DNA of 64,000 nt, taken from assembly GCA_963705305.1 (NCBI GenBank), contig OY970067.1, forward strand, positions 4,576,001 to 4,640,000, in the 5' to 3' direction. The notes below the pieces were generated by a model, which did no database searches, had not been told where the DNA came from, and saw only the letters and a program-made list of their open reading frames with translations. Each line of letters opens with the position of its first letter. Position 1 is the stretch's first letter. The position numbers and the translations under genes are program-made. This stretch comes from an uncultured Methylomirabilota bacterium. Its GTDB lineage: Bacteria > Methylomirabilota > Methylomirabilia > Methylomirabilales > 2-02-FULL-66-22. This document shows positions 2,812 through 30,254 of this stretch, one piece after another.

Positions 2812-3296
2812 GGAGCCTCCCCCAACCGGAGCAGCGGCCGGATCCGCTCCCATCGCTTCGGTCCGATGCCGGGAACTTGGAGCAGCTCCTCGATGCGTCG
2901 GAAAGGCCCGTGCACCTCCCGATACGCCACCACCCGCCGCGCGAGACCCGGCCCCACCCCGGGCAGGCCTTGGAGCGCCGTGGCATCCGCCCGGTTGAGA
3001 TCCAATTGCGATCGGCGATGTTCCGGAGGCGTGAGCTTCGCCGCCCGCAGAGGAGCCTCCGCCCGACCGAGGCGATCTGCCGCCGGCCACGGTGGCCCCT
3101 CCGCGTCGAGCGGCCCGGCCCGCAGGGGCGGGGGGGGCGTGCGCGCCGCGTCCGTGAGAAACACAGCAGGATCCCCGCTGCTCCAGGATGCCGCTGTCCC
3201 GGCCGCCAGCAGGGCGGCCAGCAGGATCACCGCCGCCCCCGAACTGTCAAGACCCGCCGTCCGAGCAGCATCCCCGCCACTCGAATCTGCCCTCAC
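2808..3296 (-). CDS. comEA: ComEA-family helix-hairpin-helix DNA-binding protein
   Basis: N-terminal hydrophobic segment; [35 protein letters not shown]...VPGIG. Overlaps the ends of both neighbouring genes by 4 nt. Confidence 0.85.
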
Positions 3297-22101: not shown

Positions 22102-22368
22102 CTAGGCGCCGACCGGCTCTTTGTCGGGATGAAGTTTCTTGAACTTCGTCAGCAGCTGGTCCTTGCTCTCCTTCCTGTCGGGATTCGGCTCGATGCTCCC
22201 CGTCGGACACGTAGACACACACTGCGGCTCCGCAAAGTGCCCTACGCATTCAGTGCAGAGGTCGGGATTGATCATATAGTGATCCTCGCCCTCGCTGATC
22301 GCGCCGTTCGGGCATTCCGACTCGCAGGCCCCGCAGCTGCTGCATTCGTCATTGATGAAAAGCGCCAT
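22102..22368 (-). CDS. 2x[4Fe-4S] ferredoxin (YfhL-like)
   Basis: CSSCGACESECP and CTECVGHFAEPQCVSTCP. Confidence 0.93.
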   Translation of the reverse strand: MALFINDECSSCGACESECPNGAISEGEDHYMINPDLCTECVGHFAEPQCVSTCPTGSIEPNPDRKESKDQLLTKFKKLHPDKEPVGA

Positions 22369-22692: not shown

Positions 22693-23112
22693 ATGCCCGG
22701 CGTCACCAGGTTTGGAGTGTCATTGGAGGCACGTCTGCTGGAGCACTTCGATCGGATGATCCAGCGGAAAGGATACACGAACCGATCCGAGGCCATTCGC
22801 GACCTGATCCGTGAAGGCCTCGTCCGGGAGCAATGGGAGCTGGAGGCCACCGAGGCGGTCGGAACGCTCACCCTTGTCTATGATCACGATGTCCGGGAGC
22901 TCGACGAGAAGTTGACCGACATCCAGCACGCCCACTACCGAACCATTGTGTCCACGCTCCACGTCCACCTGGATCCGCACCACTGTCTCGAGGTGCTGGT
23001 CTTGCGCGGCAAAGCCCGCGAGCTGAAGACCATCGCGGACCGTCTCATCGGCACCCGGGGCGTCAAGCATGGAACCTTTTCGGCCACGGCGGAAGGGCGT
23101 GTCCTGGCGTAA
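22693..23112 (+). CDS. nikR: Nickel-responsive transcriptional regulator NikR
   Basis: RFGVSL ribbon, GYTNRSEAIRDLIR, LVYDH, HVHLDPHHCLEV; upstream of a Ni/Co ECF operon. Confidence 0.96.
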   Translation: MPGVTRFGVSLEARLLEHFDRMIQRKGYTNRSEAIRDLIREGLVREQWELEATEAVGTLTLVYDHDVRELDEKLTDIQHAHYRTIVSTLHVHLDPHHCLEVLVLRGKARELKTIADRLIGTRGVKHGTFSATAEGRVLA

Positions 23113-23139
23113 GCTGCGGCCTCTTTTTTTTGGACTGTA

Positions 23140-23166
23140 GTGGCACGATTCGTAAGAGTGTAGCAC
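23140..23166. promoter_or_regulatory. Possible second NikR operator
   Basis: GTGGCAC-N13-GTAGCAC imperfect dyad with the same 27-bp span as the site at 23359-23385. Confidence 0.4.
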
Positions 23167-23351
23167 TCAAGATCAACACCAATCGCTCCTCCCCCAGACG
23201 CCTGGAGCGCTGCTCATCCTTGCCCTCGGTTCAGGATGACACTCCTTCGTGTGGGCAGTGCCCGCAGTGCGGGTCCCGGAACCCGGTCCGCGCCGGAATG
23301 ATCGGGCCTCCTGACATTTACCGGGGGATTCGCCGTTTCTCAGAATATAAC

Positions 23352-23386
23352 TTGACTGGTAGCATGAAAATAATAATCATGCTACC
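23352..23386 (+). promoter_or_regulatory. Putative NikR operator overlapping the promoter of the nickel uptake operon
   Basis: Perfect inverted repeat GGTAGCATGA-N9(AT-rich)-TCATGCTACC (23358-23386) directly after TTGACT (-35-like). Confidence 0.75.
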
Positions 23387-23550
23387 TGGATTTTTGACCA
23401 AGGCTCGGAAGGCGTTGTCCTGTCTCTCGCCAGTTCCGCCGTGGCAAGGGCCTCCAGGCGACACGCGCGGCTCGGAGGTCAGGCCGACGACGACCCCGGC
23501 CTGTACTTCAGCGAGGCACGTGCGAACTACCCACGACGAGGAAAGCCATC

Positions 23551-24588
23551 ATGCCCATGCAAAGAGACGACGTCCGAGGAGGCCAATCGCAATCCGCTCC
23601 CGATGTTCCCCGCGGCACACGCACAGGGGCTCCCCGCGGAGAAGCCGGACGCATCGGATGGGGACTTGGCGTGCCGGCCTTGGCCCTCCTCCTGGCCCTC
23701 TGCACCCCTGCCGCGCCACGTGCGCAGGAGCGGGCCGCACCTCCGCAGGATCAGGCAGCTCCGGAGGCCGAGTTCGACCTTACGGATGCGCTCATCACCC
23801 GGACCCCGCTCCCTGGATCCAGCGTAGAGCTCCGGTATCGCTACGAGCGGGACCGGGACTTGCAGGACGCCGGGAGCGCCGTCACCCATGTCCACCAGCC
23901 CTCGGCGATCCTCAGCATCGCCCCGACCGACTGGCTCGGACTTTCGGCCACCATCCCCTATCAGTTCCGGGACCTCCGGGCCCCCGACGGCACGGCGGCC
24001 GAGACGCGGAACCTGGGAGACCTCTCGACGGAAGTCCTGGCCACGTTCCTCAACGATCCCGCGCGTCAGCTCGCCGTGGCGGGGGGGTTCGACCTGGGTG
24101 TCCCCACGGGCTCAATCAAGGATGGGACCGGAGGCCAGTGGACGCTGACCCCCTTCCTTGGGGCCGGGAAGCTTGTTGGTCCCGTCCAGCTCCTGGCCGA
24201 CGTAAGCTACCAGGACGATTTCCGGGCGGCGCCGGACGGGGGTCAAATCAAGCGCGAGCTCCTCTACAACCTCGCGGTGGGCCCGCGCCTCTGCGACGGC
24301 CAGCTTTTCCCGTTCGTGGAGCTCAACGGCGCGTACGCTTTCATGGGGGACCCGGCCATCCGCCATCGGGGCCAGCTCTACATCAGCCCGGGCGTGCGGG
24401 TCAGTCCCGCCGCATGGCTTGCTGGCCTCGGGGGTTCCCCAGGCTCCGCGAACGGAGAGAAATCCCCGTCAGCCGAGGAAAAGCCCTGGTGGCAGCGGCT
24501 CAGCCTGGCGATCGGCGCCCAGTTTCCGGTCACGCAGGCCCGCGAGTTCGAGTGGGGCCTGACGACCGGCGTGAAGCTCGATTTCTGA
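23551..24588 (+). CDS. Putative outer-membrane beta-barrel ('transporter'/MetA-pathway-like family)
   Basis: Signal-like segment, alternating beta-strand pattern (WLGLSATIPY, NLGDL, LGVPTG), C-terminal GVKLDF. Confidence 0.65.
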   Translation: MPMQRDDVRGGQSQSAPDVPRGTRTGAPRGEAGRIGWGLGVPALALLLALCTPAAPRAQERAAPPQDQAAPEAEFDLTDALITRTPLPGSSVELRYRYERDRDLQDAGSAVTHVHQPSAILSIAPTDWLGLSATIPYQFRDLRAPDGTAAETRNLGDLSTEVLATFLNDPARQLAVAGGFDLGVPTGSIKDGTGGQWTLTPFLGAGKLVGPVQLLADVSYQDDFRAAPDGGQIKRELLYNLAVGPRLCDGQLFPFVELNGAYAFMGDPAIRHRGQLYISPGVRVSPAAWLAGLGGSPGSANGEKSPSAEEKPWWQRLSLAIGAQFPVTQAREFEWGLTTGVKLDF

Positions 24589-24685
24589 GCACCCTACGCC
24601 GCGGCGTCTCGAAAAGCCAGAGCCGTCTGCCCAAGAGTCTGTGGCACACTCGACAAGGTCTTTCAGAGTCTCAGGAGGATCTGCG

Positions 24686-25735
24686 ATGCATATTCCCGAC
24701 GGGTATTTGAGCCCCTCAACGTGCGTGAGCTTTGGTGTGGTCATGATCCCGACGTGGGTGGCCGCAGCCAGGAAGGTGCGACACTGGCTCAAATCCCGGT
24801 ACGTCCCCTTGATGTCCATCGGGGCGGCTTTTTCTTTCACCATCATGATGTACAATGTGCCCATCCCGGGCGGCACCACGGCCCACGCGGTGGGCGGAGG
24901 ATTGGTCGCCGTGGTGCTGGGACCGTGGGCGGCCCTGATTTGCGTGACTGTCGCCCTCGCCATCCAGGCGCTGCTCTTCGGCGATGGCGGCATCTGGACG
25001 TTTGCCGCCAACTGTTTCAACATGGCGCTCGTGCTCCCCTTCGTGGCGTATGGCGTCTACCGCCTGATGAGCGGAGACAGCCCGCTTGAGGCGAAGCGGC
25101 GCTGGATCGGCGCCGCCCTCGGAGGCTACCTGGGCCTCAACGCGGCGGCCCTGTGCGCGGGCGTCGAGCTGGGACTGCAGCCCCTGCTCTTCCATACCGC
25201 CGCCCGGGTGCCCCTCTACTGCCCCTATCCGCTCGCGGTGGCGGTGCCAGCCATGCTGTTTGCGCACCTCCTTCTGGCCGGCCCCATCGAAGGGGTCGTC
25301 ACCGCGCTCGCGGTCCGCTACCTGCAAGCCTCCGACGCAGCCCTGTTGAACATCCGGGCACTGGCGACCGCTCCTTCGCCCGCACCGCCCGCGATCTCCC
25401 GCAGGTTCTGGTGGGCGCTGGGCGTCCTGATCGTCCTGTCGCCGCTCGGCCTGCTGGCCAGCGGCACGGCGTGGGGCGAATGGGGGGCCGACGAACTGCA
25501 GAAGATGCTCGGATTCGTTCCCGCCGGGATGCAGCGGCTGGCGGACACCTGGTCCCATGCGCCGTTCGCCGATTATTCGCTCCCCGGCTTCGAAAGCTTC
25601 TGGGCCGCAGCCCTCATCTACGTCCTCTGCGCCGTCCTCGGCGTCGGGACGATCTGCCTGCTCACGTTTGCCTTCTGGCGGCTCCAAATGGCGGAGCGCC
25701 GGCGGCAGAATGAGACACCGCAGGTTCTCCGTTGA
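24686..25735 (+). CDS. nikMN: Ni/Co ECF transporter substrate component, NikM/CbiM fused to NikN-like domain
   Basis: N-terminal MHIPDGYL metal-binding motif, PGGTTAHAVG, QALLFGDGG, C-terminal WGEWG...APFADY. Confidence 0.9.
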   Translation: MHIPDGYLSPSTCVSFGVVMIPTWVAAARKVRHWLKSRYVPLMSIGAAFSFTIMMYNVPIPGGTTAHAVGGGLVAVVLGPWAALICVTVALAIQALLFGDGGIWTFAANCFNMALVLPFVAYGVYRLMSGDSPLEAKRRWIGAALGGYLGLNAAALCAGVELGLQPLLFHTAARVPLYCPYPLAVAVPAMLFAHLLLAGPIEGVVTALAVRYLQASDAALLNIRALATAPSPAPPAISRRFWWALGVLIVLSPLGLLASGTAWGEWGADELQKMLGFVPAGMQRLADTWSHAPFADYSLPGFESFWAAALIYVLCAVLGVGTICLLTFAFWRLQMAERRRQNETPQVLR

Positions 25736-26685
25736 CGGCCCGGAGGTGGTCCGCCCCGGCCTGGCTCCAGGAGAGCACACGGCCGCCGGTGCCCCCCGCG
25801 TCACCCAGGCGTTCTTCGAGGCGGAGCTTCATCGAAAAGACCTTGCAGGCGATCGCCGAAACCCTCGAGCGCGAGTTCTTCTCCGAGTCGGTCGCAAGCC
25901 GGTCGGGCCTGATGCAGGAGCTGGATCCGCGCGCCAAGCTGGCCTCGATCCTCTTCTTGATCGGGACGGCGGGGCTGCTCCAGCACGCCTTCTCGCTGGT
26001 CCTGTTCAATGTCTGGCTGGTGTGGCTGGCGAGGAGCTCGCGGATCCCCGTCGGAGCCTTCATAAGAAGAGTCTGGATTGTGGTGCCGCTCTTCACGGGG
26101 ATCCTGGTGTTCCCCGTCCTCTTCAATGTGGTGCGGCCCGGCACGCCGCTCCTGGTGCTGTTTCATCTGAGCCATCCGGTGAGGTTGGCCGCCTGGATCC
26201 TCCCCCGCGAGGTGGCCATAACTAGGGAAGGGGCTGCGGCCGCGGTGCTGCTGATCCTGAGGGTCGGCGCGTCCGTTTCGCTGGCCGTGATGCTCACGCT
26301 CACCACCCGGTGGAGCACGCTGCTCAAAGCCTTGAGCGTCCTGCGGATCCCCCAGGTCTTTCTGGCCGTGCTGGAGATGACGTACCGATATATCTTTCTC
26401 TTGTTGCATACGAGCAGTGAGATGTTCATGGCCCGGCGGAGCCGTCTCGTCGGCCGAGCGAGCTCCCGTGAAGGGCGCCGGTTTGTCGCTTCCGCCATGG
26501 GAAGTCTTTGGAGCAAGACGGCAGCGCTGAGTGAAGAGGTGCACAGTGCCATGCTGGCACGCGGCTATGCGGGGTCGCCCCGGTCGCTGTGCCGGTTCGA
26601 GATGAAACGCAGCGATTGGGTCTGGATGGCTCTGGTGCTCATCATCGCGCTGGCGTTCGTGGGAGGCGACCGTGTCCTCGGCTGA
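25732..26685 (+). CDS. nikQ: ECF transporter transmembrane component (NikQ/CbiQ)
   Basis: LDPRAKL, MTYRYIFLL, ARRSR, AMLARGY. Confidence 0.9.
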   Translation: MTARRWSAPAWLQESTRPPVPPASPRRSSRRSFIEKTLQAIAETLEREFFSESVASRSGLMQELDPRAKLASILFLIGTAGLLQHAFSLVLFNVWLVWLARSSRIPVGAFIRRVWIVVPLFTGILVFPVLFNVVRPGTPLLVLFHLSHPVRLAAWILPREVAITREGAAAAVLLILRVGASVSLAVMLTLTTRWSTLLKALSVLRIPQVFLAVLEMTYRYIFLLLHTSSEMFMARRSRLVGRASSREGRRFVASAMGSLWSKTAALSEEVHSAMLARGYAGSPRSLCRFEMKRSDWVWMALVLIIALAFVGGDRVLG

Positions 26686-27490
26686 AAGCGCCGTGCCATC
26701 GGTCTTTCGACTGGAACAGGTGAGCTACCGGTACGTGGATGGAGAAATCGGCGTTCAGGACGTCAATTTGGCCATCCTCGAGCAGGAGCGAATTGTCCTC
26801 CTGGGCGCCAACGGGTCGGGCAAATCCACATTGCTGAAGGTTCTGGACGGCTTGCTGTTTCCTCAAAAAGGGACGATCCACGCCTTCGACCGGGAACTGC
26901 ATGAGAAGAGTCTGAACGACGACGGGTTCAATCAGGCATTCCGCAGGCGGGTGGGGTTCGTTTTTCAGAACGCTGATGCGCAGCTTTTTTCGTCTTCCGT
27001 ATGGGAGGAGATCGCGTTCGGCCCCTTGCACATGGGACTTGACGGAGCAGAGGTCCGCCAGCGCGTTGTGGAGGTTCTGGAGCTTTTCGGCCTGGCGGGC
27101 GTGAAGGACCGGCCGCCGTTCGCGCTCAGCGGCGGCGAGAAAAAGAAGGTCGCGCTGGCGTCGGTTGTAGCCACGAATCCGGCCGTGCTGCTGCTCGATG
27201 AACCTACGACAACACTCGACCCGCGCACACATCGGTGGCTGATCGACATGCTGGCCCAGTTCGGCCGCTGCGGGAAAACGCTCATCACGGCAACCCATGA
27301 TCTTGATACGGTTGAAGAGATTGCGGATCGCGTCCTGGTCTTCGGCGAGGATCATCGTGTGGTGGCCGATGGGACACCCTCGGAGATTCTTGCCGACCGA
27401 AATCTGCTCTTACGTGTGAATTTGATCGATCCGAGGTTTCACAAGCACGTTCATGGCGGCGAACACCGGCATTATCACATTCATGATTAA
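26672..27490 (+). CDS. nikO: ECF transporter ATPase (NikO/CbiO) with His-rich tail
   Basis: GANGSGKST, VFQNADAQLF, LSGGEKKKVA, LLDEPT; ends HKHVHGGEHRHYHIHD. Confidence 0.92.
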   Translation: MSSAESAVPSVFRLEQVSYRYVDGEIGVQDVNLAILEQERIVLLGANGSGKSTLLKVLDGLLFPQKGTIHAFDRELHEKSLNDDGFNQAFRRRVGFVFQNADAQLFSSSVWEEIAFGPLHMGLDGAEVRQRVVEVLELFGLAGVKDRPPFALSGGEKKKVALASVVATNPAVLLLDEPTTTLDPRTHRWLIDMLAQFGRCGKTLITATHDLDTVEEIADRVLVFGEDHRVVADGTPSEILADRNLLLRVNLIDPRFHKHVHGGEHRHYHIHD

Positions 27491-27634: not shown

Positions 27635-27919
27635 TTACCAGTTCTGATGGTCTGCGGGTGTCTCGCTCAGCACGCTGCCAAAGCCGGGGACTTCCTGCCG
27701 CAAGAACCGCTGCACTCCCTCACGGAGAGTGATGCTGGCCCCGGGTCAGCCCACGCAGGCGCCGACCAGCCGGACGCGGGCGTCCCGCCCCACGACGGCG
27801 AGGAGCTCGATATCGCCCCCATGGGCCTGAAGCGCCGGCCGGATGCTCTCTACCGCCGCCGCAATCCGCGCCTCGAAGTCAGGAGTTGCGGCTTCCGCGC
27901 CGCCTCGAGACATCTCCAT
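27635..27919 (-). CDS. Nfu/NifU-C domain Fe-S carrier, probable selenoprotein (CxxU)
   Basis: Missing from ORF track. SD AAGGAG, then MEMSRG...IRPALQAHGGDIELL...VRLVGACVG[TGA 27746-8]PGASITLREGVQRFLRQEVPG..., TAA at 27635. Confidence 0.85.
27705..27740 (-). promoter_or_regulatory. Putative bacterial SECIS element
   Basis: After the UGA: GGCC-A-GC-AU-CACUCUC-[CGUGA]-GGGAGUG-CA-GC-GGUU stem-loop; loop begins 21 nt after UGA with G at loop position 2. Confidence 0.7.
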
Positions 27920-29369
27920 GGGCACCCTCTCCTTCCCGTCTCGGAAGATTGCGTTGCTCCGTCCGCACCGATCTCCGCGGGCCCGACCGGCTGGCGCGGG
28001 CGGCTGGGACGCGGGCCGGCGGGGGACGCCGCGCGGACCCGGACGACTGCTGATTCTGTGCAGGGGCAGGGTCGGGGGACAACCCCAGCACCTCCCAGAG
28101 CTTCGAGGGATCGGCCGACGGTCGGCCGAGTCGCCTCAGTCGGGCAAGGTCTCGCTCCAGCCCCTGGAGCGCTCCCGTGACCTGCTCGCGACCCCCACGA
28201 AACGCCACGACCTGCCGCGGCGCCCGGCCCCCCAGGGCCGCATGGGGAATGCTCGGCCATCGTGCCACAATGTCTGCGAGGAACCGGGCGCCTCCCGAAT
28301 CCATCCGATCCGCCACGGAATCCGCAGAGGTAAGTCCGACGCCGTCGCCTTCCTCTGCCGGATCGATGCGCCGGATCAGGCCGCGCAGGGACGTTTCGAA
28401 GTGCTGCCCGGCTGCCGCCACGTCTTCTCTCGTGTCGGCGTGGAGAGCCAGCATCCCGGGCGTGAGGATGATCGTCGCGCGTGACAGGCCCAGGGTTGGA
28501 TCGACCCACGCGTATCGCGTTTCCTCCTTTTTTGATTCCTGCCGCTCCAGACCGTCTTCCCGACTGAGGCAGGCATGCACGCGTCCCATCTCCTCCGCAG
28601 CATAGGAGAGCATGGCTGGCGCAAACGCCACCCGGCGAACCGTCTCGCCGGCCTGACCGCCGAGATCCCGTCCGCGCAGCAGAAAGAAGTGATGGTAGAG
28701 ATGGGCGGAGGCGTCCAGAAAGTCCTCCAGCGAAACGTGGCGAGCGGGTCGAGCCAGCCGATACGTGGTCCGCAGGTATGCCAACAGCTCCTCGCGGCCG
28801 GCCGCGGGCAGCGTCAGGAGACTCATCCCTGGTCTCATCAGGCGCCCGAGCGGGAGGAGGCGGCATATCAGGAGGTCGGAGCGAATGGGAGGGTGCGCCA
28901 GGCCGCAGGGACCCACCTGGAACTCTCCGCCCGACAGCACGTCTCTCACCACACATCCGCGCGGACCCAGGGTCTCACCCACCTCGAATGTCCTGATGGG
29001 GGTGAGCAGCGAGGCCAGCAGAAGGGTCTCCTCTCGGGCGTCCAGCGCGGCGATGCCGTCGGCAAACCGCCCGAGAAACGTTCCCTTTCGCTGGGGGCGA
29101 GCATACTCATGAAGCGTCCATTCAAGAAAGCCGAGGTGCGGATCGGGCCCAACGTATCCCTTCCCGACACGAAGAGGACCGCTGGTATTCCAGAAGATCT
29201 CGCCGGCCTGCGATTCGAGACTCCGCATGGCGGCGGCCTGCGCAAAGGCGACCAGCCGGCTCCCCAGGCGGTGAAAGCTCTCTTCCCACGGGAGACAGCA
29301 CTCGGCCAACGGCCGCCCACTCCCACATCCGCAGGCGGCCTGGCGTTGAATCCGAGGGAACACTGCCAT
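27879..29369 (-). CDS. SEC-C motif-containing hypothetical protein
   Basis: N-terminal CGCGSGRPLAECC; C-terminal W..IPHAALGGRAPRQ motif; low-complexity tail overlaps the next gene. Confidence 0.7.
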   Translation of the reverse strand: MAVFPRIQRQAACGCGSGRPLAECCLPWEESFHRLGSRLVAFAQAAAMRSLESQAGEIFWNTSGPLRVGKGYVGPDPHLGFLEWTLHEYARPQRKGTFLGRFADGIAALDAREETLLLASLLTPIRTFEVGETLGPRGCVVRDVLSGGEFQVGPCGLAHPPIRSDLLICRLLPLGRLMRPGMSLLTLPAAGREELLAYLRTTYRLARPARHVSLEDFLDASAHLYHHFFLLRGRDLGGQAGETVRRVAFAPAMLSYAAEEMGRVHACLSREDGLERQESKKEETRYAWVDPTLGLSRATIILTPGMLALHADTREDVAAAGQHFETSLRGLIRRIDPAEEGDGVGLTSADSVADRMDSGGARFLADIVARWPSIPHAALGGRAPRQVVAFRGGREQVTGALQGLERDLARLRRLGRPSADPSKLWEVLGLSPDPAPAQNQQSSGSARRPPPARVPAARASRSGPRRSVRTEQRNLPRREGEGAHGDVSRRRGSRNS

Positions 29370-29616: not shown

Positions 29617-30147
29617 TCAATCCCCGGGCGGGGGGCCATGAGTCAAGTCCTGCGGCTCGAGACGGGCCAACGCTATGATGATCTCGGCAACGGCCAGCCC
29701 GAGCAGGGACCCCAGCACGCCGCTGATCGCCACGAAGGCGGGCGTACCCGCCGCCATTTCTTTTCCCAACACCGACATGGCCATGAAGAAGGCTGGAACG
29801 AAGCGGTCACCCGTAGGGGTCGCCTGCAGGTCAAGCGCCCAGCGGACCGCCAGCAGGCCGATTCCCAGCGCTGGGGTGCAGAGGCCGGTGACCGCCCCAT
29901 AGCGAAGCCCTAGGAGCCGGAGCTTCCGCCCTGTCATGGCGGCTCCCTCGAAGCGCCCCCGGAACCAGGCCAGCCCGAAGACTAGACACAACCCCGCGCT
30001 GACGAGCATGGCCAAGAACATGGCTGTCTGGTCCGCCCCACGATAGCGGCGCAGGAAGGCCCCCAGACACAGGAGAACCAGCGCAGCCAGGATGCCAATA
30101 GCCGCTCGCAGCTTCGGAATTCGGATCCTGGTTTCCGCCGTCTGCAT
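29617..30147 (-). CDS. Hypothetical membrane protein (about 4 TM)
   Basis: Four hydrophobic segments; GGGAG before ATG at 30147. Confidence 0.65.
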   Translation of the reverse strand: MQTAETRIRIPKLRAAIGILAALVLLCLGAFLRRYRGADQTAMFLAMLVSAGLCLVFGLAWFRGRFEGAAMTGRKLRLLGLRYGAVTGLCTPALGIGLLAVRWALDLQATPTGDRFVPAFFMAMSVLGKEMAAGTPAFVAISGVLGSLLGLAVAEIIIALARLEPQDLTHGPPPGD

Positions 30148-30254
30148 GAGGTCTCCCGCACGCACGCGCGGTGCAGCCCTACCCTAGTGGGGGGTGCTGC
30201 GCGTTGTCAATCCCTTTCGACGCCTGCCCAGCCGGGGAGGCCGCCGCCAACCCC

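Follow-up and report, generated by a model that had tools for sequence, protein, structure and literature searches.

A stand-alone Nfu gene of an uncultured Methylomirabilota bacterium almost certainly encodes a selenoprotein, its single in-frame UGA being read as selenocysteine (Sec). The gene (27635-27919, minus strand) lies within the window, the whole 64,000-nucleotide stretch of DNA analysed here, and runs for 94 codons from an ATG at 27919 to a TAA at 27635. Its TGA is codon 58 (27746-27748, read from 27748 to 27746 on the minus strand) and, in the genus alignment, occupies the place of the second cysteine of the Nfu CxxC motif, in the context LVGACVG-U-PGASITLR. A Shine-Dalgarno-like AAGGAG stands 9 nt 5' of the ATG (27929-27934, minus strand). 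An earlier sequence-only reading had described this 94-codon frame with its Shine-Dalgarno sequence and had placed the TGA on the second Cys of a GACxGCP motif; both are as described, in the minus-strand frame, a point that reading left unstated, and the plus strand of 27635-27919 contains nothing related to Nfu. The diagnostic peptide it offered, GACVGUPGASITLR, has to be corrected, since the tryptic peptide would start with LVG (LVGACVGUPGASITLR).

The product, here called Sec-Nfu, matches the Pfam NifU family (PF01106) over residues 19-83 with 75.9 bits when U is read as C, the curated cut-off being 27 bits. Searched at the DNA level, the match crosses the TGA (68.9 bits), which bears out the earlier claim of an Nfu/NifU C-terminal domain on both sides of that codon, and this locus is the sole PF01106 match in the 5.65-Mb genome. 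All five sequence matches among solved structures are Nfu domains. Likewise, an AlphaFold model built from 63 sequences (mean pLDDT 72.8) returned Nfu domains as its top six Foldseek hits, the best being 2z51 (E 4e-7, TM 0.68). The ligand motif retains C55 and has UGA at its second position, so that a literal CxxC is absent and the motif becomes C55-x-x-U58 if the codon is recoded.

In domain, fold, position of the G-x-C-x-x-C motif and stand-alone architecture, Sec-Nfu resembles the single-domain Nfu carriers of PF01106, among them Staphylococcus Nfu (1XHJ), the Helicobacter and Synechococcus Nfu proteins, Arabidopsis CnfU/NFU2 (2Z51) and the C-terminal domain of human NFU1 (2M5O). It differs from them in having UGA at the second Cys position, followed by a SECIS-like hairpin. 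With NfuA (TIGR03341) and full-length NifU (TIGR02000) it has the C-terminal Nfu domain in common, but it possesses a short, Shine-Dalgarno-led N-terminus instead of an A-type or IscU-like N-terminal domain and scores 39 against the 269 needed for TIGR03341 and 47 against the 273 needed for TIGR02000. None of the NCBIfam selenoprotein models, TIGR01911 included, matched it at E 0.01. The HesB-like selenoprotein described by TIGR01911, which we presume to be related to A-type Fe-S carriers, belongs to another family and carries another motif (UxGP).

The genome carries selA (577 bits), selB (313 bits), selD (342 bits) and a tRNA-Sec (77 bits), so all four sel genes that the sequence-only reading had proposed to look for are present above their curated cut-offs. 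Its selD has an in-frame TGA of its own, in the context ASCAG-U-ASK; no Sec codon could be established for formate dehydrogenase from four PF00384 matches. Because TGA is also the most frequent stop of long open reading frames in this genome (1213 of 2172), the recoding in nfu would be site-specific and not the product of an altered code. This bears on the plainest alternative to a selenoprotein, namely that the TGA really ends translation, results from a sequencing error or a pseudogene lesion, or encodes Trp or Gly throughout the genome. The frequent use of TGA as a stop argues against reassignment, and no TGG stands at the Sec/Cys column in any locus examined, which argues against a reading as Trp.

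The relatives weigh further against this alternative. An orthologue was found in 17 of 20 genomes of the same genus, and at one and the same column it has TGA in 12 and TGC or TGT in 5, so that both kinds of homologue anticipated by the earlier reading exist; the three genomes lacking a close orthologue are 70-76% complete. A check by TGA pattern agrees, with 12 of the 20 genomes. Within the genus, Sec and Cys orthologues are 62-66% identical. In sister families of the order, one genome (G022) has TGA and three (G021, G025 and G029) have Cys. The TGA is not private to this assembly, as an error would be, for the same codon recurs in 13 independent genomes and, among the matches listed, in 87 metagenome loci. 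The latter come from a motif scan of metagenome contigs that gave at least 119 loci; among those listed, 87 of 119 (81 of them distinct, with a GC content of 41-77%) have TGA in place of the second Cys of a NifU domain (E < 1e-8), and the remainder are chance matches or too short. Some single metagenome matches without a hairpin (e.g. L129) could indeed be errors.

Distribution of the Sec machinery follows the TGA. Twelve of the 13 TGA carriers (12 genus members and G022) have selA, the exception being a genome 68% complete. All five Cys-form members of the genus retain both selA and tRNA-Sec; therefore, their cysteine is specific to the nfu gene.

The frame beyond the TGA also speaks against a true stop or a lesion. 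Among 13 genus sequences, pN/pS is 0.25 over 36 upstream codons and 0.32 at codons +12 to +28, values that are descriptive since these kin are not independent; judged from them, the codons downstream of the TGA are under purifying selection. Of the TGA frames, 96 of 101 reach a stop, in every case 29-64 codons after the TGA, an outcome that the motif and domain filter favours. Altogether, the alternative of a TGA that is not recoded is already largely refuted, and we regard it as highly improbable.

The stem-loop that the sequence-only reading placed after the TGA is there. Its upper stem and apical loop make up the putative SECIS element (27713-27731, minus strand), with GUGA or CGUGA as the loop, 21-22 nt after the UGA. 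The pairing CACUCUC/CGUGA/GGGAGUG originally given has its loop after 21 nt, a G as the second loop nucleotide and an energy of -8.2 kcal/mol; an alternative pairing with a GUGA loop after 22 nt reaches -8.8 kcal/mol. Including a lower stem that varies among relatives, the whole predicted hairpin spans 27704-27742 (minus strand) and folds with -19.2 kcal/mol. Its geometry agrees on every count with the bacterial SECIS rules as set out in section 5 of PMC13188914 (a loop of 3-9 nt with a G in its first two positions, 16-37 nt from the UGA, a stem of at least 4 pairs and a minimum free energy of -7.5 kcal/mol or lower).

Neither geometry nor energy is distinctive. Of 93 distinct TGA forms, 79 conform to a loose SECIS rule, yet so do 27 of 55 Cys forms; against shuffled sequences the hairpin energy in four windows gave z = -1.04, -0.26, +0.45 and -1.39, no better than chance in GC-rich DNA. 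The support for the hairpin comes from conservation instead. Among 34 Sec sequences of its own clade, 27 use ACA for the Thr of the stem, all 34 use CTC for its Leu and 33 use GGA for its Gly, at a genome usage of 5.7%, 36% and 12.8%, respectively; of the 5 Cys forms, ACA is found in 2 and GGA in 2. Synonymous diversity is correspondingly low in the stem (pS 0.235 at codons +6 to +11 vs 0.47-0.54 elsewhere, among 13 genus sequences that as kin are not independent). Judged by this codon choice, the hairpin appears to be kept through rare synonymous codons.

The Sec clades compared here were hand-picked from the tree, six short or duplicate loci being added by resemblance. The own clade has a consensus 6-bp stem with 98% of cells paired. 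A second clade (18 Sec sequences) has an invariant 6-bp stem with 100% of cells paired and its loop after 37 nt, and in a third (16 sequences) the loop is GUG and lies near +25. Compensatory, two-sided changes number none in both consensus stems tested. In the gene of the window and three relatives, the fold is displaced by two bases; in this register L031 has G-C in place of the U-A of the source gene, a single case read by eye. On one metagenome contig (L120, plus strand), a Cys-type nfu at 2538 and a Sec-type nfu at 3022 stand in tandem 484 nt apart; only the Sec copy retains the hairpin codons of its clade, and the Cys copy upstream has lost the stem via synonymous codons. With the sel machinery, the alternation of TGA and Cys codons, the wide occurrence, the downstream selection and the conserved SECIS codons, the earlier proposal of a selenoprotein is thus well borne out.

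The mode of expression would follow known bacterial Sec decoding. SelB with Sec-tRNA would bind the hairpin about 21 nt downstream, and Sec would be inserted at codon 58; without insertion, translation would terminate at the TGA and leave a 57-aa piece, which according to the model would be without the second helix (residues 59-76) and the last strand. Exactly such a form has entered the annotation. The sequence-only reading had supposed that gene-finding pipelines would truncate or miss the gene; truncation is confirmed by the annotated 57-aa protein P0026, which ends immediately before the TGA, and the gene has accordingly not been missed. Among 120 protein homologues listed, 53, including P0026, stop immediately short of the second Cys, 66 have CxxC, one has CxxS and none has U.

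In a quick tree (74 columns, rows shorter than 60 aa left out) computed with the Sec/Cys column masked, the 5 Cys forms of the genus are nested among 36 Sec rows in one branch (SH-aLRT 99). This nesting suggests reversion from Sec to Cys. Over its whole extent the tree needs 11 Sec/Cys label changes, of which the starred branches force 2.

The Sec form of Nfu is patchy in its distribution. Across 151 genomes of the same phylum, TGA was seen in 5 among the PF01106 matches listed (150 of 161), all in families f1 and f3. None occurred among the matches listed for families f8-f12, which belong to other orders and were represented by 105 genomes, 98 of them with a PF01106 match, nor in five of these genomes that were rechecked. 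The TGA motif scan, which recovered 13 of 21 in the own genus as a positive control, found none in a sample of 251 genomes from the phylum to which a Syntrophobacteraceae genome belongs, and none in 201 small genomes of the phylum that includes an Acholeplasmatales genome, a poor test group. A scan of named genomes with the Sec-Nfu protein gave 41 loci, 40 with TGC or TGT and 1 too short, but its back-translated pattern contained Cys and was therefore blind to Sec carriers. A second apparent TGA match in G005 was rejected because it is the normal stop codon of a full-length NifU of the Cys type; this nifU (L215, G005:C2, about 2056900-2057800, minus strand) has apparent frameshifts and is followed by a nifS-like gene. 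Some homologues have degenerate motifs, with both ligands lost in G028 (L046, YLGS) and G035 (L047, YAGR) and the second lost in P0019 (CLGS).

What Sec-Nfu does is a question of analogy. In Cys homologues, the Nfu CxxC binds a cluster of the [2Fe-2S] or [4Fe-4S] type where the two subunits of the homodimer meet (PMC7939391, PMC8593673). By that analogy, two Sec-Nfu chains would form a dimer bridged by a [4Fe-4S] or [2Fe-2S] cluster that is ligated by two C55 thiolates and two U58 selenolates. The protein would receive clusters from the SUF system, whose locus is present in the source genome, or from an A-type carrier; ferredoxin, NuoB and radical SAM enzymes are examples of the apo-proteins to which it would hand them on. 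We favour such a role as a Sec-ligated Fe-S cluster carrier, though with far less assurance than the recoding itself. Since close relatives have Cys, Sec must be dispensable; its part is probably to adjust how stable the cluster is or how well it resists over-oxidation, and not to add a new reaction. Cys Nfu proteins matter most under oxidative stress (PMC7939391, PMC8593673, PMC5014551), and the role of Sec-Nfu would probably weigh most under oxidative or nitrosative stress.

Gene order in the sister families points the same way. In G022 and L158 (both Sec) and in G025 (Cys), merR-like, iscS, nfu, erpA and nuoB genes follow one another on one strand with no iscU between; these genes are named by family in G022 and by resemblance or clustering in L158 and G025. 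The run supports a role in Fe-S metabolism and with it the putative carrier proposed by the sequence-only reading. The source genome is arranged otherwise, with nfu about 320 kb from erpA and an iscS orthologue (69%) elsewhere, far from nfu, so that this context is drawn from the relatives. It has a run of merR-like, A-type carrier and nuoB-like genes without iscS or nfu (L222, G000:C1:4284398-4287700), which we read as a remnant of the sister-family run that holds both. A further gene of L222 we take to be korA-like, and a transposase-like ORF lies upstream of the run.

The same gene order also fits the main rival role, in which CxxU is not a ligand pair but a redox (selenenyl-sulfide) centre that would, for example, release sulfide from the IscS persulfide or reduce oxidised client thiols before cluster insertion; the position of nfu directly after iscS, with no iscU between, counts in its favour. 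Most catalogued CxxU and UxxC selenoproteins are thought to be redox proteins (section 7 of PMC13188914), and Nfu1 has been suggested to act as a persulfide reductase (Liu 2009, according to PMC5014551). Moreover, in another Sec clade (L114, L143, L171 and related loci), nfu lies among genes for Crp/Fnr, YgbA, hemerythrin, COX1-like, DUF1858 and cupin proteins, and we count the Crp/Fnr, YgbA, hemerythrin, DUF1858 and cupin neighbours in favour of the redox role. We take the Crp/Fnr-YgbA-hemerythrin neighbourhood to resemble a nitrosative-stress cluster. Against the redox role, the fold is that of Nfu and not of thioredoxin, and a single function is suggested by the gene position that Cys and Sec forms share. 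Characterised Cys Nfu proteins, single-domain bacterial ones included, bind and transfer clusters via the CxxC motif (PMC7939391, PMC8593673). We consider the redox role possible but rather unlikely, and the two roles are not mutually exclusive.

Carrying the cluster-carrier reading to its full extent, we tentatively propose, as a combination whose parts would all have to hold, that Sec-Nfu is a natural carrier or scaffold whose dimer interface binds a transferable Fe-S cluster through two selenolates and two thiolates; that in part of the order it works alongside IscS and ErpA, the three being encoded in a minimal run of genes without iscU; and that Cys gave way to Sec on more than one occasion, a different SECIS element arising in the same helix each time, with the loop at about +22 nt in one clade, about +25 nt in another and about +38 nt in a third.

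The immediate neighbours in the window offer possible partners. Directly upstream lies an unnamed gene, an ORF of 496 aa (27879-29369, minus strand) with a Cys-rich N-terminus; the 443 aa scanned gave no Pfam or NCBIfam match. A gene of this kind (about 460-500 aa) directly precedes nfu in 14 of 18 genus loci and is single-copy in the source genome. Its N-terminal Cys cluster (CGCGSG...CC) is, we assume, SEC-C-like, and its low-complexity tail overlaps the nfu start by 41 nt. One weak promoter-like site lies upstream of it (29502-29474), and the two genes are possibly co-transcribed. Further upstream, a membrane-like ORF of 182 aa (29617-30165, minus strand) without a family match precedes the unnamed gene in 10 related loci.

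On the other side, a YfhL-type 2x[4Fe-4S] ferredoxin (22102-22368, minus strand) is co-oriented with nfu. The sequence-only reading took this ferredoxin and the nearby NikR/Ni-ECF operon as hints of Ni/Fe-S/Se metallocentre assembly. The ferredoxin hint is supported in part: a ferredoxin of this type follows nfu in six other loci without a cbiO match, within about 200 nt in L040 and L168, and is a candidate client of Sec-Nfu. The nickel hint fares worse. The nikR gene (its start approximate), an unnamed gene and the cbiM-cbiQ-cbiO ECF transporter genes (22696-27490) lie on the plus strand and converge on nfu, with stops at 27490 and 27635; hence, a common transcript with nfu is ruled out. A role in nickel or Ni-Fe-Se metallocentre assembly together with this transporter would draw on the presence of cbiO within the 1.5-kb flank of nfu in 8 of 18 genus loci, all TGA forms, and on a nikR-cbiMQO block that also adjoins nfu in G005. 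The link has nevertheless turned up only in part of one clade, and since the ferredoxin follows nfu without cbiO in those six loci, the ECF block looks like an insertion. The operon is probably not part of the Sec-Nfu system, and a nickel role appears quite improbable. Between nikR and cbiM, a 345-aa gene (23551-24588, plus strand) has a weak Phenol_MetA_deg match and was not matched in the G005 region; it is possibly an outer-membrane channel of the metal importer.

Table 1 of a 2026 review (PMC13188914), which lists 119 selenoprotein families and includes those of Haft and Tolstoy 2025, has no NifU, Nfu or PF01106 family; its nearest entry is the HesB-like protein, a published precedent for Sec in a family linked to Fe-S assembly. 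Term searches found no Nfu-type selenoprotein family in the accessible portions of PMC9312934, the deep-Sep text and supplements, and the BSepDB text, and SelCysML, as far as its available tables go, names only the Cys-type enterobacterial NfuA, in control and annotation tables. Literature searches returned no publication on a Sec-containing Nfu, though supplements or RefSeq records could hold one. Sec-Nfu is thus apparently a widespread selenoprotein family absent from the current published catalogue. It would place a selenoprotein family in a core pathway, the delivery of Fe-S clusters. The natural Sec and Cys orthologues within one genus and the tandem Sec/Cys pair make the role of selenium as ligand of a cluster that is held and released directly testable. 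A recurring annotation error, the 53 truncated homologues, is also explained. To this the present locus contributes the family's branch in its order, where natural Sec/Cys pairs occur, as well as the iscS-nfu-erpA context and a corrected nickel hint.

Some observations from the related loci may be added. In L131 (2900-5783, minus strand), Sec-Nfu comes immediately after bioB and the gene of a sulfide-dependent thiazole synthase, and BioB is a plausible cluster client there. Genes resembling pmoA, under the family cut-off, were seen in two same-order relatives (2 of 5 genomes tested). In G025, two adjacent ORFs (L219:3093-3773, minus strand) resemble, as we take it, a glycine/proline reductase B-type protein split at a stop and are possibly another selenoprotein.
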